Part shown: one piece after another, positions 41,978-63,119 of the stretch | How positions within the stretch are numbered: the first letter of the stretch is position 1 | Layout of the letters: every line of letters starts with the position of its first letter | From: Rhina ancylostomus | Taxonomy: Eukaryota | Direction: 5' to 3' | Length of the DNA stretch: 64,000 nt | Assembly (NCBI GenBank): GCA_030265395.1 | Contig: JARFYF010000029.1 | Coordinates: 20,573,101 to 20,637,100, forward strand | The notes under the pieces: generated by a model | Told to the model about the DNA's origin: nothing | Seen by the model: the letters and a program-made list of their open reading frames with translations, nothing else | The model's database searches: none | Program-made: the position numbers and the translations under genes

Positions 41978-42051
41978 TTAGGCGAGTTTGTAGGTGCAAA
42001 TGAAAGGTAGATCTTCTGAACAGTCTGTATCACTCCATCTGCCTTTGGTAT
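41978..42051 (-). CDS. Terminal C-type lectin exon: (D)TKGRWSDTDCSEDLPFICTYKLA*
   Basis: Acceptor ttttttttattccag, phase-1 join. W-S-D-x-x-C and F-I-C motifs, stop TAA at 41980-41978. Confidence 0.95.
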
Positions 42052-43728: not shown

Positions 43729-43840
43729 CTCCAGAATTAAAGCTCACACAGTTCTCATTTTCTTTTACATTGTCAGGCTGGTCATTGTTCCATTTTGTAA
43801 AATCTAGCATAGATCCATCACTCCACAGAAAAATACCCTC
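43729..43840 (-). CDS. C-type lectin domain exon: EGIFLWSDGSMLDFTKWNNDQPDNVKENENCVSFNSG
   Basis: Acceptor ttttttcacatag, 112 nt, donor gtaggt (phase 1). Contains WSDGS, W-x3-QPD-N and E-N-C-V motifs. Confidence 0.95.
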
Positions 43841-44022: not shown

Positions 44023-44163
44023 CTCATAGCAGTCACTAAGGCCAATCCAAGTGGTGGGTTGTGATGGGTCCTGTGCCTTAATCAGACTTTGAATGAATTG
44101 ATTGTGTTCATTCCAGTGGATGGAGGCAAGGTGGCCATTTGGCACATATTGCCGGCACTGTAG
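44023..44163 (-). CDS. C-type lectin domain exon: LQCRQYVPNGHLASIHWNEHNQFIQSLIKAQDPSQPTTWIGLSDCYE
   Basis: Acceptor ttttcttttccatgtag, 141 nt open frame, donor gtagag. Contains the HLASI and WIGL CTLD motifs. Not in the ORF track. Confidence 0.95.
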
Positions 44164-48329: not shown

Positions 48330-49020
48330 AACCAGAAACTCAAACAGACCACCTTGTAGCGTCTGCATCTACCTGAGCAAATCAGACACCGGGGAATTCA
48401 TAAATGAGCGGCTCACATCCTAATGCTTCCCAAGGATTTTCTAATATGAGTATGCCACAAGTCAGATGTGTGATGGAATATCTTTCACTTTTCCGAATGG
48501 AAGCAACTGAGAAAACTCAACACCTTTCTGGACAAGGCATCTATGTGATCATGTTCAGCCTGTAAATCTGTTCCTTCCAACGTTGCTGAAAAGTAACTAT
48601 TGTCAGTAAGATGGAGAGTCCATCCTAAAAAAAAAGGCAGTGTTTCCATTATAGGATTGGGTCAGCAGTCCATTCAAGCATAAGGTGGAGAGTCCATTCT
48701 GTTTTATGGCAGACATTCCATTCTAGGATATGGTGGAGGTTCCAGTGTAAGATAGAGCAGAGAGTTCATCCTAGGCAGAGGATGACCTTCAAACCCTTAA
48801 CTTTTAATATCCAACAAGGACAAGAAAAACTGACACAGGGGAGGATGGTCACTTTCAAATTCCCATCAGTGTCACATACCTTTCTTATTTGGTGACTGTT
48901 GTCATTGTTTCATTGTCAATGGGTCAAAACTCCAGAACTCTCTACTTATAAATGCAAGTACCCTCACTACAAAGATTGAAGTTGGTATAAAAGGCATACT
49001 TCCTTTGTAATGAGAGCAAT
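48330..49020 (+). mobile_element. CR1-group LINE 3' fragment interrupted by the repeat relic
   Basis: cacaagtcagatgtgtgatggaatatc before 48600 and ccttcaaaccc...gggtcaaaactccagaactc after 48785 are successive parts of one LINE tail. Confidence 0.7.
48600..48785 (-). pseudogene. Intronic decayed copy of the octapeptide repeat
   Basis: Minus strand reads PRMNSLL-YLTLEPPP-YPRMECLP-*NRMDSPP-YA*MDC*P-NPIMETLP, matching exon units such as YPRMDPPM and YTGMDSPP but with stops and a frameshift. Confidence 0.8.
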
Positions 49021-49087: not shown

Positions 49088-52000
49088 CTCAGCTTCTAAC
49101 CAGGTTACCTTCATCTTAGTGAAGAATTGATAACAAGATGACAGATAGATGTAATGAGTCCATCCAGGTAGACAGGATTGTTTGTATTGCTGGACTGGTG
49201 TTTCTGAATGAGATGCAACCTTTATACTGAGATTAGGATAAGAGTCATCCAGTTTTTGTTTCATAGCAGAAAAACGTGGATATGCTTTTTCATGGTATAA
49301 TGGAGCTGCCACTTCAGGGTGAGTTGGGGATAATGCTTCAGGGTTGAGTGGATGTTTAGTTTCAGGATGTGATCCAACTTCAGGATAAGATGGAAGTTTA
49401 CCTTTAGAGTAAGCTGGAGGTTCTATTTTGGTATGCAGTGGATGTTCCAATCCAGGATTAGGTGGTGAGTCCATTCCAGTATATGGGAAGGGTTCCATTT
49501 TAGGATGCAGCAAAAGTTCCATTTTTGGATACATTGGAGGATCCATCCTAGGATAACCTGGATGTTCCATTTTGGAATATGGTTTATGTTCCACATTAAG
49601 ATGAAGGGATGATGATATTCTTTTAGGATCAGGGATAAGTACCACTTCAGAATAAAGCTGTGATACCCCATCAGGATTGGGCAGAGCTGTCCCCTTGAGA
49701 TTCAGCTGAGGGGGTATTTCAGGGTTTAGCTGATATATCATTGCAGAATTGGTTGGATACGTCATTTCAAACTGAGGGTGAGATGCTACTTCTGGATTAG
49801 GTGGAGACACCACTTCCAAGTAAGAAGGAGATTCCATTTCAAGATTTTCCAAATGTGCCATGTTAGCAGAAGATGGGGATTCTGCTTCTGGAGAAAATTG
49901 AGATACCACTTCAGGGTAAGGTGCTGACAGTATCTTAGAATAAGACCGAGGAACTGCTTCAGGATTAGTTAAAAGTGCTGGTTCAGCAGAAGGCACTTTT
50001 GAAGGAAAAGTTGGAGACATTACTTCAGGAACTGGCTGTGTTCCCACTTCAAGGTCAGATGAAGACATTTCTTGGGGATGAGGTGGAGACATCACTTCCG
50101 CATAAGGTGGCGGCATCACTTCGGGATAAGGTACGGAAATCAGTTCAGAAAGAGATGGAGGTATCACTTCATTAGTACTCAGAGCCACTCCAGCAGGCAA
50201 AGTTGAAGACATCACTTTAAGTGAAGGTGGAAGGACTATTTCAGGTGANNNNNNNNNNACAGAGATACCAGATTGATTGATGGCAGAGGTGCTACTTTAG
50301 GTGATAGTGGAAGAGAAACATTGAGTGAAGATGGAGGTGATCCCAGAGGTGCCACTTCAGAGGTAGGGGGAGATACTGCATCTGGTGACGATGGAGGTGC
50401 CACCTCAGGTAATTGTGGAGATGACACTTTAGGTGTTGTTGAAGATTCCCCGTCAGGCAAATGTGGAGGTGGCACCTCAGGTGATAATGGAGATGCTCCT
50501 TCAACAGATGATGGAAGTGTCACCTCGGGAACTGGTGGAGGAGGCACTTCAGAAGAAGACAGAGGTGCCACTTCGGATGGTGGTGGAGGCGCCACTGTAG
50601 GAGAAGGCAGAATTGTTGCCTCAGGAGAATGAAGAGGAATCATTTTAGGATCAAGGAGAGGTAATTCAAATGAGGGAGGAGATGCTATCTCAGTTACTGT
50701 CAGAGATGCCATTTGAGATGAGGGTGGAGTTCCTACCAAAGGTACTGGTGCTAGTTGGGGATGCACTAATTCTGGTATTATTTCAGGATCAGCCAGAGAT
50801 TTAATGTCACCAGATGTCACTTCAGGTGCTGACGGAGGTGGTACATTGAGTGAAGGTGGGGATGGCAATTCCAGTGTAGGTGTCACAGTGAGTGAAGGTG
50901 GAGGAGCTGCTGCTACAGGTGAAGGTGGAGGAGCTGCTGCTACAGGTGAAGGTGGTACATTGAGTAAAGGTGGAGAGGCTGATTCAGCCGAAGGAGATGT
51001 CCCATTAGATAATGGCAACATTGCTACTTCAGGTGCAGGTAGAAGTGGTGCATTGGGTGAGGATGGCAGTGGTATTCTAGGTGAGGAAGGTGGTGGCACT
51101 CCAGGTGTAGATGGAGATGGCATTTCAGATGAAGGTGGAGATGGCAGTTTAAGTGGAGGTGACGTTTTGGGTGAAGATGGAGATGATGCTACATTGGGTG
51201 AACTTGGAGCTGGTACTTCAGGTGAAGATGCAGGTGAAAAATTGGGTGAAGATGGAGGAGGCACTTCAGGTGAAGATGGAGAAGGCACTTCGCGTGATGA
51301 CAGAGGGGGCACTTCAGGTGAATATGGAGGGGGCACTTCAGGTGATGATGGAGGGGGCAGTTTGGATGATGATGGAGGGGGTGATGCAGGTGATGATGGA
51401 GGGGCCGGTTCGGGTGACAATGGAGGGGGTACTTCAGGTGGTGATGAAGGGGGTGGTGGGGGTGGTGATGGAGGGGGCAATGCGAGTTGTGATTGGGNNN
51501 NNNNNNNNNNNNNNNNNNNNNNNNNNNNNNNNNNNNNNNNNNNNNNNNNNNNNNNNNNNNNNNNNNNNNNNNNNNNNNNNNNNNNNNNNNNNNNNNNTAA
51601 TGTACGGGGCACTTCAGCTGATAGAGAGGGTGCTCCAGATGATGGAGGGGGCATTTCTGCTGATGACGAAGGGGGCACTTCACATGATGATAGAGGAGGC
51701 ACTTCAGATGGTGATGGAGGGGGTATATCAGCTGATGACGGAGGGGCCAGTTTGGGTGGTGATGGGGGGGCCGGTTGAGGTGGTGATGGAGGGGCTGGTT
51801 TAGATGATGACAGAGGGGCCGGTTCGGGTGACGACGGAGGGGCTGGTTCAGGTGGTGATGGAGGGGCTGGTCTGGGTAGTGATGGAGGGGCCAGTGCTGG
51901 TGGTGACGGAGGGGCTGGTCCAGGTGGTGACAGAGGGGCCGGTCCGGGTGGTGACAGAGGGGCCGGTTTAGGTGCTGGTGCCACTTTAGGGAAAGCCTGA

Positions 52001-52622
52001 GGTGATTCTTTTGTAGGCAGTGATGGTTGCTCAGGTGAAAGTGCTTGTACCACTTTAGGATTATGCGCTGCTTCCTTTTCAGAAGAAATTAGAGCTATCC
52101 TTGAAGGTGAAGAAGGTAACTTCAATTCAGGATAAAGTGAAGGTGCCATTTCATGATATAGTAATGTGTCCTCTTCAGCATTAGGCTGAGATACTGCATC
52201 AGAATAAGAGGAATACATTAATTTTAAAGAAGGATAAGATGGTAATTCAGCACGATTGCCTTGTCCTACTTCATGATTTCTTTCAGGGCCCAGTTCACCA
52301 TCCATTATGGGACTAGTTTCATGATCAGGAAGTGATTCCGTCATGTAAAGTGCTCCTTCCGGATTGGATTCTTTTAATTTTTCATTCTCATGAAAAGCAT
52401 AAGCTGATTTTGAAGGATAATGTTGAGTGTAACTTTGTTTGACATCCGCATAATCATGATAAAGTACCACTTCAGGATAAGGATTTGATGCTAATTCATG
52501 ATATGGATGCTGAACTTGTTCATTATTGAAATAAGGATTCACAAGCTTCTCGTTTACTGGATATGCTCGCTGTAATATTTGCCGCTTCTTCAACATGCCT
52601 GACAATTTTCGAATATCGAAAG
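49088..52622 (-). CDS. Giant coding exon (~3.5 kb): Pro/Ser/Glu-rich octapeptide repeat region plus N-terminal part of the C-type lectin domain
   Basis: Acceptor ttcttttttatttaatcacag. ORFs 50236..52674 and 49022..50215 join across the 10-N gap (SPEIVLPPSLKVMSST continues open after it). The exon ends SCLPGWTHYIYLSSCYQFFTKMKVTWLEAE|gtaagg (phase 0), a typical CTLD start. Confidence 0.9.
49300..52150 (-). repeat. Coding 24-bp (8-aa) tandem repeat array, consensus approximately SPEVPPPS / YPEMEPPP
   Basis: Plus-strand units such as cacttcaggtgaagatggaggagg recur every 24 nt, most homogeneously at ~51200-51980. An exact 27-bp duplication lies at 50892-50945. Confidence 0.9.
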
Positions 52623-61392: not shown

Positions 61393-61447
61393 CTGCAGCA
61401 TCAACTAAGAGCCTTGCACTGATCAGAAGAATGATCCTTAATATCAT
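61393..61447 (-). CDS. Coding exon 1 (signal peptide MILRIILLISARLLVDAA) of a proline-rich C-type lectin gene
   Basis: Minus strand: acceptor ttttgtttttcctttcag (exon starts 61477), ATG at 61447 with A at -3, 18 mostly hydrophobic codons plus G, then donor GTAATT. The phase-1 end joins the acceptor at 52622 to give ...DAA-AFDIRK in frame. Confidence 0.85.
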
Positions 61448-63119
61448 ATTTGTACCATGAAGTTCTTTTCCTGCAGCCTGAAAGGAAAAACAAAATTTTA
61501 CATTAATATGTTTAAAAGTAATTAGTGTGAAAAGAGAGAAATTCCAATCCTGTTCCAATATCTTTTCTCCAGTCTACAGAGTGATAGTTTACATTGGTAA
61601 TTATATATACATCAGGTCTGCACCACATTTGAAAGCACAGAAATTTGATACAATTGGTAGATCGACACTGATGTCAAAACAACTACCAGCCAGTATTTGC
61701 TTCTTATTGGAACTGAGGGAAAGAAGAGGTGGAGTTTTCACAGTACAACTGGAGTGCACCTTAGGTATTGCGATACTTACAATATATCCCAAATGTTTTA
61801 GTCAGATCATTAATCAGCACATGTTCCAAGTGGGATCAAGGAGAAAGCTCCATTTCTGCTAACATGAGACTTGGAACTAGACCTTAAACAATCATTCATC
61901 TCTCTCTGTTGGGTCACTCGCCATTTTAGTCATCAGTAGCCTGTTAACTATTTAATAGTCTGAAACACTGAACAAAATTGCGGTACAAACTATTTTTATT
62001 TAATGCAAAAGCCATAGAAAAGCACACCATGAAACAAACGAAGGTAATAATTAACTATAATGTCATTACGTTTTTGGATTTTATTTCTTTGTGACCGTCA
62101 GTTGCTGCCTTATTTTCACATGAGAATACAGGAAATCAAGTTCAAAGCAACTGCCAATAAGGTATATAGGAGCCAAAAGACACTACAAATCAAATTAAAC
62201 CTCAACAAATGATAAAGAGTTAAGGTTAGAAGAGTGAAATCAATTGTTGATTTTAAAACAAATGTGTCGAGTTGGTTTGATCTTCAGTGGTTAGTGTTGG
62301 TGAAAAATGGAAACTGGAAAACAGTGACTGCTGCATTTGGTTTAGAGACCTTTCGTTAGCAGGAATTAAAACAGAGATAAAGGTTATATAATTCTGTAAC
62401 AATGAAGCAGCCCAAATCAGAATAGTGGATAGCAAGAGGCACTAATGTTTCATGTGAAGAAGGAAGCTTCAACAGTGGTCATAGCTAATAAAGAAATGTC
62501 AATAATTAAAAACACAAGACATTGAGGATGTACAAAAGATGAGAGAGATTATGAGAGGCAGAATATGTTAGAGTACATATAATAATTTCCTTCACTAGTG
62601 ATCTACTTTGCTCTTTCCAAGGCATCCCATAAAGCTATTGCAACACTCTATATTGAGTATGGTGCAGCTGGAGTCCAATGTCTATGATCACATGACATGT
62701 CATTTCTGTAAATATTGTTGAACAGGGATCCCAAGCTTGTTTCTTCAAGGTCTGAAACATTTTGCTCCCTTCTTTGTGTTGCCTTCTACTTATCCTGACA
62801 AAGAAGCAGTAAAACATTATTAACGATAGAATTTTTGAAGTGAAAGTGATTACATACACCACAGAACAGACCTTAGTGCTTTTAATGTTTTTTAAGAAAA
62901 TTTTACAGAAAACGTTCAGCTACCTTTAAACTACGAAGTCAGTCAGTGGAACAGGAACATCCACCAATTAGCTATGCTCTCTGAACTGGACGATGTGTTT
63001 GCTTGCAGCCCCTTCCAGATTTTTTTTTATTTCTAATGGGTCATGAAGGCATCTTCTGGGTAAATGGGAATTTGGTCTGGAACTACTAGTGCTTTATGAT
63101 GTCCAAGTCAAACAGGATG

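Follow-up and report, generated by a model that had tools for sequence, protein, structure and literature searches.

The 64,000-nucleotide stretch of Rhina ancylostomus DNA analysed here (the window) contains a gene of five coding exons on the minus strand, which encodes a predicted signal peptide, Pro/Ser-rich repeats of at least 1,111 residues (the neck) and one C-type lectin domain, in that order. The long repetitive reading frame at positions 52622-49088, described in an earlier note as a giant exon with an eight-residue period, is a single exon of this gene with an AG acceptor at 52622 and a GT donor after 49088. Its last ~29 residues are the start of the lectin domain, which was missed in that note. 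The favoured reading, with an even chance of being right, is of a secreted lectin whose long neck would be extended and O-glycosylated and would serve to tether and hydrate matrix or mucus. Together with a paralogue, the gene forms an apparently undescribed shark-and-ray gene pair that is mislabelled by automatic naming in databases as mucin-2, brevican or snake-lectin-like.

Gene structure, orthologues and lectin domain

All splice sites of the five coding exons are canonical, and the intron phases are 1, 0, 0 and 1. The parts of the gene and an intronic repeat copy are listed below (TRF, Tandem Repeats Finder).

61393..61477, minus strand: start-codon exon, ATG at 61447, 18-residue predicted signal peptide, canonical AG/GT, phase-1 donor
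51970..52622, minus strand: N flank of the giant exon (~217 aa), diverged Tyr/His/Pro-rich 8-mers behind a conserved basic start, 2 S-x-E
51100..51969, minus strand: homogeneous 24-nt core of the giant exon, unit P-E-[PV]-[AP]-P-P-S-[SP], 11 S-x-E
49175..51099, minus strand: diverged distal repeats, Pro/Ser/Leu/Val-rich and then a Tyr/His/Met/Lys-rich C flank, 9 S-x-E
49088..49174, minus strand: lectin-domain start within the giant exon, recognised by sequence; the domain of the stingray orthologue matches PF00059 at E 2e-18
48632..48790, minus strand: intronic relic of the 24-nt repeat, 3 stop codons, TRF period 24
44023..44163, minus strand: lectin-domain exon of 47 aa, WIGL motif and an extra Cys three residues past it, phase 0/0
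43729..43840, minus strand: lectin-domain exon with the QPD motif, phase 0/1, 81% identity with the orthologue
41978..42051, minus strand: terminal coding exon, which carries the WSD motif, the last cysteines and the stop codon

The signal peptide was predicted from the hydrophobic leader (9-residue hydropathy 2.98), with no dedicated predictor, and the start-codon exon is 74% identical to the N-terminus of the stingray orthologue. Two N gaps (51498-51597 and 50249-50258) split the giant exon into segments of 341, 412 and 387 aa. The known parts of the protein total ~1,270 residues, the gap in the core being unsized. In the core, TRF finds a period of 24 with 72-77% matches; the 100-N gap lies inside it and leaves its true size uncertain.

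The N flank is 62% identical to the stingray orthologue. It begins (window 52580-52622, minus strand) with a conserved basic, amphipathic-looking motif ending in K-K-R-Q, which is also found in the stingray and the whale shark and, in a looser form, in the paralogue; this motif may be a pro-peptide, convertase site, assembly signal or oligomerisation helix. The distal repeats are 44% identical over 105 aa to a near-perfect 8-mer array of the sawshark orthologue. The unit of the C flank is P-[KR]-M-E-x-P-P-Y, and the final 228 aa ahead of the lectin domain contain no S-x-E. A genome search with the C flank gave no second copy at E 0.01. Pfam gave no family above its cut-off for the two long frames of the window, as the exon holds no more than the beginning of the lectin domain, and nothing above cut-off for 145 stop-free stretches of window 1-41900. 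The ESM Atlas gave no usable match for the N flank. Gly-rich open frames on the plus strand were rejected as antisense shadows of the repeat.

The only long homologue found, the single match among 3,475 candidates, is XP_059832435.1 of the stingray Hypanus sabinus (annotated as 'mucin-2-like', 1,406 aa). This protein has the same layout, with PF00059 at the C-terminus as its only Pfam domain. Partial orthologues have been identified in Pristiophorus japonicus ('brevican core protein-like'), Scyliorhinus torazame (scyTo_0019611) and Rhincodon typus (XP_048463829.1). The lectin domains of the stingray, sawshark, cloudy catshark and whale shark proteins are 80, 78, 72 and 66% identical to that of the window, respectively, and orthology was assigned from this identity (66-80%) plus common N-terminal or repeat sequence. 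In a tree that contained no REG sequence, the window domain groups with the stingray orthologue (98/93) and the sawshark (95/93) in an elasmobranch clade of its own, which is joined by a Heptranchias lectin (82/86); deeper nodes are weak. In the rays, a neck of 1,000-1,200 residues has stayed open though its flanks are only 53-62% identical. No orthologue was found outside elasmobranchs, a weak negative from searches crowded by multi-domain mannose receptors. No description of this gene was found in the literature, including by five accessions, and subscription journals and supplements may bear on that.

An intact paralogue with the same exon plan lies head-to-head ~22 kb away, at about 20,656,600-20,667,350 of the same contig, C29 (plus strand; pieces L007:9600-9641, L008:4218-8767 and L009 ~270-345). 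It groups with Hypanus XP_059832554/5 (100/99). Its neck of 226 residues is Pro/Phe/Tyr-rich in the first half and acidic in the last half, and the last 86 neck residues contain 23 D+E, four S-x-E and a lag-12 period. An acidic, calcium-binding role would suit the paralogue better than it suits the window gene. In the stingray, the paralogue has database isoforms without inner parts of the neck.

The lectin domain of the window contains seven cysteines and the WIGL motif, and the exon 44023..44163 is 94% identical to that of the stingray orthologue. The extra (seventh) cysteine after WIGL is common to all orthologues and the paralogue and is absent from the Heptranchias lectin. An odd cysteine often links chains. 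The QPD motif, which marks galactose-type binding, occurs in the domain of the window and in those of sawshark, catshark and whale shark. When a profile built from six elasmobranch proteins was scored against the PDB, its best single-domain scores were 104 bits for BJcuL, 99.5 for rattlesnake lectin (both reptile galactose lectins), 98.4 for the aggrecan domain and 89.9 for lithostathine, which favours reptile lectins, aggrecan and lithostathine about equally. The PDB matches include lithostathine, struthiocalcin-1 and ovocleidin-17. Of the three introns of the domain, one lies upstream of C1, another follows WIGL and the third separates C2 from C3; these positions are common to the genes of groups VII and XII and of fish antifreeze protein (AFP)-like lectins (PMC514892).

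The gene is a variant of the soluble single-domain lectins, and is neither a lectican nor a gel-forming mucin. Membership of the C-type lectin superfamily is indicated by PF00059 (orthologue E 2e-18), WIGL and the conserved cysteines. The signal peptide, the one C-terminal domain and the three intron positions are shared with the group VII, group XII and fish antifreeze-like lectins, including REG1 lithostathine, REG4, reptile galactose lectins, ovocleidin-17-like proteins and eosinophil MBP. Group VII free lectins consist of the domain alone, whereas the window gene has the long neck, encoded with the domain start in one exon, and the seventh cysteine after WIGL sets it apart from soluble lectins with a single C-type lectin-like domain. 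Group XII (eosinophil MBP-like) proteins have an acidic neck and Gly at the fourth WIGL position (PMC514892), whereas the neck of the window protein is barely acidic and its motif is WIGL. The lecticans (aggrecan, brevican and versican) are likewise secreted proteins in which one giant exon encodes an extended and probably glycosylated stretch before a lectin domain, but the window gene is without Ig, link, EGF and CCP modules and has only three Ser-Gly dipeptides, the type of GAG site used in lecticans. Unlike the gel-forming mucins (MUC2/5), the orthologue has no vWD or cystine-knot Pfam match, and the neck holds one Cys.

Period and open frame of the giant exon

Lag-8 identity was scored against 500 shuffles, over whole segments and inside 40-aa blocks. 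The core reached 0.60 (z 11) and 0.43 (z 7-8). The distal part of one of the three segments, segment B, reached 0.23 (z 4.5-4.8) and the C flank 0.22 (z 9.4-9.8). Lag 8 and its multiples rank highest in the core, the distal part (z 4.5-5.6) and the C flank (z 6.9-9.8). The signal was weakest in the N flank (0.13, z 3.6), the first 120 aa of which scored higher at lag 10. At the nucleotide level, lag-24 identity was 0.37-0.75 over the repeat part of the exon vs 0.21-0.55 at lag 21. The register that had been claimed to run from the core into diverged flanks is borne out by these values (z 7-11 in the core and 3.6-9.8 in the flanks), autocorrelation at 24 nt or 8 aa giving a signal both in the core and outside it.

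The same lag-8 period was found in the stingray neck (z 11.4) and in two incomplete proteins from sharks (z 16.5 and 5.9). Unit profiles place all necks in one Pro-first register, which reads PEVPPPSS-like here, PSLPPLSS in the stingray core and PRMESPPY in the sawshark flank. The register P-x-x-P-P-x-S-S is common to both ray cores, position 2 being E here and S in the stingray. The exon is thus a coding minisatellite whose register is constant and whose unit is lineage-specific (E-bearing here, S-bearing in the stingray and R/Y-bearing in the sawshark).

The exon was compared with contigs of four DNA-like public runs of relatives (X1-X4), and these contigs traverse introns. Across the 10-N gap, X2 and X3 carry 20 nt and X4 carries 44 nt, with the frame preserved in every case (by hand). 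One 10.6-kb X4 contig covers the full exon in 3,215 nt, consistent with phases 1 and 0 (by hand), so at least one relative has the exon undivided and in frame. Among the length differences listed, all 12 counted in the exon are multiples of 3 and five of them are multiples of 24, whereas four of the six intronic differences are not multiples of 3. In the protein alignment with the stingray, nine of 20 gaps are multiples of eight residues. The 50 listed exonic substitutions comprise 16 synonymous and 34 non-synonymous changes and no stops; the neutral expectation is 29.5% synonymous, and omega is about 0.9. The earlier statement that stops are absent across the exon agrees with these substitutions and with the three stop-free segments.

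Three features of the counting qualify these figures. The indel count excludes one frame-breaking row of -1 nt (X1, in the repeat core) and the core-to-core joints, which were judged to be misplaced copies of the repeat; a run of five neighbouring X4 rows was taken together as a single 27-nt event; and the counts cover the listed rows, with 14 indel and 205 substitution rows outside them.

The intronic copy at 48632-48790 serves as a neighbouring non-coding control. It contains three stops and still has a lag-24 identity of 0.43, and it is present in the contigs of all four runs. Its identity with the sawshark repeat is ~50% (E 7e-11), as close a match as the coding flank gives or closer. Because this stop-ridden copy keeps the 24-nt period, the period is explicable by slippage without selection. 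The eight-residue period most likely arose by growth and homogenisation of one 24-nt unit, through slippage or unequal crossing-over. The substitutions look near neutral, and we infer that the open frame has been kept by selection; what selection keeps is most likely the frame and the Pro/Ser-rich character, and not single residues. Selection had been proposed on frame and period alike; the first part stands on the 12 in-frame length differences, whereas the second is undercut by the intronic copy. A perfect 27-nt (9-residue) duplication at window 50892-50955, within the 24-nt array, has one copy fewer in X4 and is a recent in-frame yet off-register event.

Possible functions of the protein

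The neck contains 24.8% P, 15.8% S and 3.2% T, with 216 S/T over the three segments. Compared with mucin-type proline-threonine-serine domains, P+T+S amounts to 33-56% by segment (56% in segment B), and the glycosylation is a prediction. No 19-residue window exceeds a hydropathy of 1.15, so a membrane anchor is not expected. In the favoured reading, a secreted lectin on a glycosylated neck, the signal peptide would direct secretion and the neck would form an extended polyproline-II or disordered, O-glycosylated spacer. The lectin head would bind galactose-type glycans or matrix proteins, Ca2+-dependently at QPD/WSD, the heads would pair through the seventh cysteine, and the chain would be cleaved after K-K-R. 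Such a molecule could cross-link, tether and swell extracellular matrix or mucus. A Pro-rich chain that is secreted and probably both extended and O-glycosylated is plausible, in line with the earlier note; the acidic calcium-binding scaffold proposed with it is mostly unsupported.

Several observations count against the tethering lectin. The Thr content is lower than a mucin domain would suggest. In the stingray orthologue QPD and WSD have been lost, QLN and WNE standing in their place, so sugar binding is not universal, and the WSD of the window departs from the usual WND, a motif read here in its customary meaning. The acidic neck of the paralogue is compatible with a mineral role. The S-x-E density of the neck is 1.98 per 100 aa, equal to that of shark Scpp (elasmobranch Scpp has 1.8 per 100 aa; PMC9122587), and this too would suit a mineral-matrix role.

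A possible but doubtful alternative is a matrix protein of mineralised tissue that combines a lectin with disordered repeats, like sea urchin SM50 or avian ovocleidin-17. Its Pro/Tyr/His repeats would self-assemble into a scaffold in enameloid, dentine or tesserae, perhaps joined by the acidic paralogue, and phosphorylation would matter little. C-type lectins have been recruited repeatedly to biominerals, and SM50 consists of a lectin domain and Pro-rich regions (PMC8144736, PMC6771980). Sea urchin SM50/SM30 resemble the window protein in joining a lectin-like domain to a disordered Pro-rich repeat in a secreted chain (secretion being predicted here); they differ in reverse domain order and in the repeat, and orthology is unsupported. 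Lithostathine, struthiocalcin-1 and ovocleidin-17 among the PDB matches, the enrichment of Y-P (13 vs 5.0-6.9) and the paralogue's acidic last 86 neck residues also favour a mineral role, as does the eight-residue Pro/Tyr repeat PDYXXPXX carried by elasmobranch Scpp and Sparc-L (PMC9122587). On the other side, the locus differs from the LMF-flanked locus reported for OC-17-like genes, and the four S-x-E of the paralogue are no more than its composition predicts (2.8 ± 1.4). The word 'lectin' is absent from eight supplementary text files of a paper on catshark mineralising cartilage (PMC13188829), a weak negative because genes may be listed there by accession only.

A more specific form of the mineral reading can be offered as an unlikely conjecture. 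An elasmobranch mineral module would have arisen from a duplicated free lectin, with one copy gaining an eight-periodic Pro/Tyr/Ser scaffold of 1,100 residues and the head-to-head copy an acidic S-x-E neck, the two being paired by the extra cysteine common to both and organising the enameloid or tessera matrix. If true, this would be an SM50- or amelogenin-like solution reached without SCPP, and eight-residue Pro/Tyr repeats would have originated a second time in elasmobranchs, beside those of Scpp/Sparc-L. If the pair is expressed in teeth, denticles or tesserae, it would be a non-SCPP candidate for the short list of cartilaginous-fish mineral-matrix proteins.

It is distinctly unlikely that the protein is an innate-immune lectin of skin or mucosal secretions, whose head would read microbial glycans while the neck anchors it in mucus or acts as a spacer. 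Among single-domain structures, the nearest come from free lectins that bind galactose, from REG proteins and from aggrecan, and the skin of a bullhead shark is reported to contain a C-type lectin (cited in PMC10707392). Conservation of the domain is high (72-80% from ray to shark), unlike that of a fast-evolving one, and the accession of the catshark orthologue is absent from the main text of a shark skin-mucus proteome; both points argue against this role.

The proposal of the earlier note, in which the protein is a convergent SCPP, a polyanion phosphorylated by FAM20C and able to bind calcium, is very unlikely. About 20 S-x-E motifs had been counted by eye, and 22 are present in 1,111 aa. 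This is above chance for the composition, composition shuffles giving 13.1 ± 3.2 and reaching 22 in 11 of 2000 cases. S-x-E is the dominant secretory phosphosite motif (PMC12650399) and, together with the Scpp-like density, this means that some sites may be phosphorylated. The earlier note also names an SPEV phosphosite in kappa-casein, for which no confirmation was found in the literature passages searched.

The excess of S-x-E is confined to S-P-E (11 vs 3.4 expected), whereas other S-x-E occur at chance level (11 vs 9.9). S-x-x-E, which is not the consensus, is enriched to the same degree (23 vs 13.1), as the unit junction S-S-P-E would predict. Shuffles that preserve the register columns give 23.5, 21.3 and 17.0 S-x-E for blocks of 48, 80 and 160 residues, and 22 is reached by 1532, 930 and 129 of 2000 such shuffles, respectively; once the register is kept, the excess is gone. 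The stingray orthologue has 18 S-x-E vs 12.9 expected (68 of 1000 shuffles reach 18) and three S-P-E, and its 12 core units have S at the E position and no E. In the flanks alignable with the stingray, six of 12 S-x-E are kept, a point in favour of phosphorylation to be set beside ~4.6 expected by hand (S 69/113, E 41/65); the 10 core sites could not be aligned. The partial shark models, with no S-x-E in 145 aa and two in 243 aa, are not weighed against phosphorylation because they cover the flank that is without S-x-E here too. The S-x-E sites thus look like a by-product of the S-S-P-E junction of the unit in this lineage and not a selected motif, and S-x-E counts in repeats should not be read as selection.

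The neck is also a poor polyanion. D+E amounts to 9.5% and K+R to 5.0%, with a net charge of -0.045 per residue; there is no acidic block, the most negative 50-aa block being -7, and the S-x-E sites are unclustered, spaced at least eight residues apart. In addition, elasmobranchs already own an scpp gene, which the elephant shark does not have (PMC9122587), and catshark spp2 duplicates rich in S-x-E (PMC13188829). The earlier statement that cartilaginous fishes lack the SCPP cluster therefore holds for the elephant shark and not for sharks and rays.

The window gene falls outside the SCPPs, from which it departs in linkage, in the phase of its introns, in acidity and in domain content; it agrees with them only in having S-x-E. 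It is not linked to sparc-L, its neighbours being IQSEC-like, PARP12-like, DENND11 and SLC6 genes, and none of seven genome matches to the SPARC calcium-binding domain lies on contig C29. The first coding introns of SCPP genes are in phase 0 (PMC9122587), whereas the phases here are 1, 0, 0 and 1. Acidic SCPPs and elasmobranch Scpp have a D/E-rich domain, unlike the window neck. The window protein resembles elasmobranch Scpp/Sparc-L in predicted secretion, in eight-residue Pro/Tyr periodicity and in having ~1.8-2 S-x-E per 100 aa (PMC9122587), but its unit profiles differ from PDYXXPXX. A two-unit DNA pattern for PDYXXPXX gave no genome matches, so the comparison with the window unit was made by profile only. 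Unlike Scpp/Sparc-L, the window gene has a lectin domain, and the SCPP-like proposal leaves this terminal domain out.

That the neck is a largely dispensable pro-piece from minisatellite expansion, trimmed or spliced out so that the free lectin domain works, is highly improbable: omega near 0.9, the widely varying neck length, the stingray paralogue isoforms and the acidic neck of group XII lectins (PMC514892) speak for it, whereas a neck of 1,000-1,200 residues kept open in rays despite flanks only 53-62% identical, 8-mer repeats that persist in two sharks and the lack of a dibasic site adjoining the domain speak against it.

Neighbouring genes and other lectin loci

The window gene and its paralogue lie between the genes listed here, which were located at L015:7207-8316 and L017-L019 (plus strand), L009-L026 (minus strand) and L032 (plus strand).

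Upstream: IQ/Sec7 (IQSEC-like) gene, the last exons of which may extend as far as the window's left part
Downstream: PARP12-like gene (zf-CCCH, WWE, PARP), DENND11 and an SLC6 transporter gene

HMG-CoA synthase and P2X are markers of the REG4 and PRG2 loci, and searches for both gave no match on C29.

A related lectin exon (L005) was found on contig C51 near 17,396,160 (plus strand), with 47% identity and WIGL followed by Cys. An LMF gene lies ~0.58 Mb from it. LMF2 flanks the avian OC-17/XCA eggshell-lectin locus (PMC8144736), and the C51 exon may be a ray member of this locus because of the nearby LMF gene. A genome-wide PF00059 search also identified at least seven single-exon lectin-domain matches on contig C68 at 5.04-5.09 Mb (plus strand), two of which lie inside long open frames of 777 and 1,683 aa.

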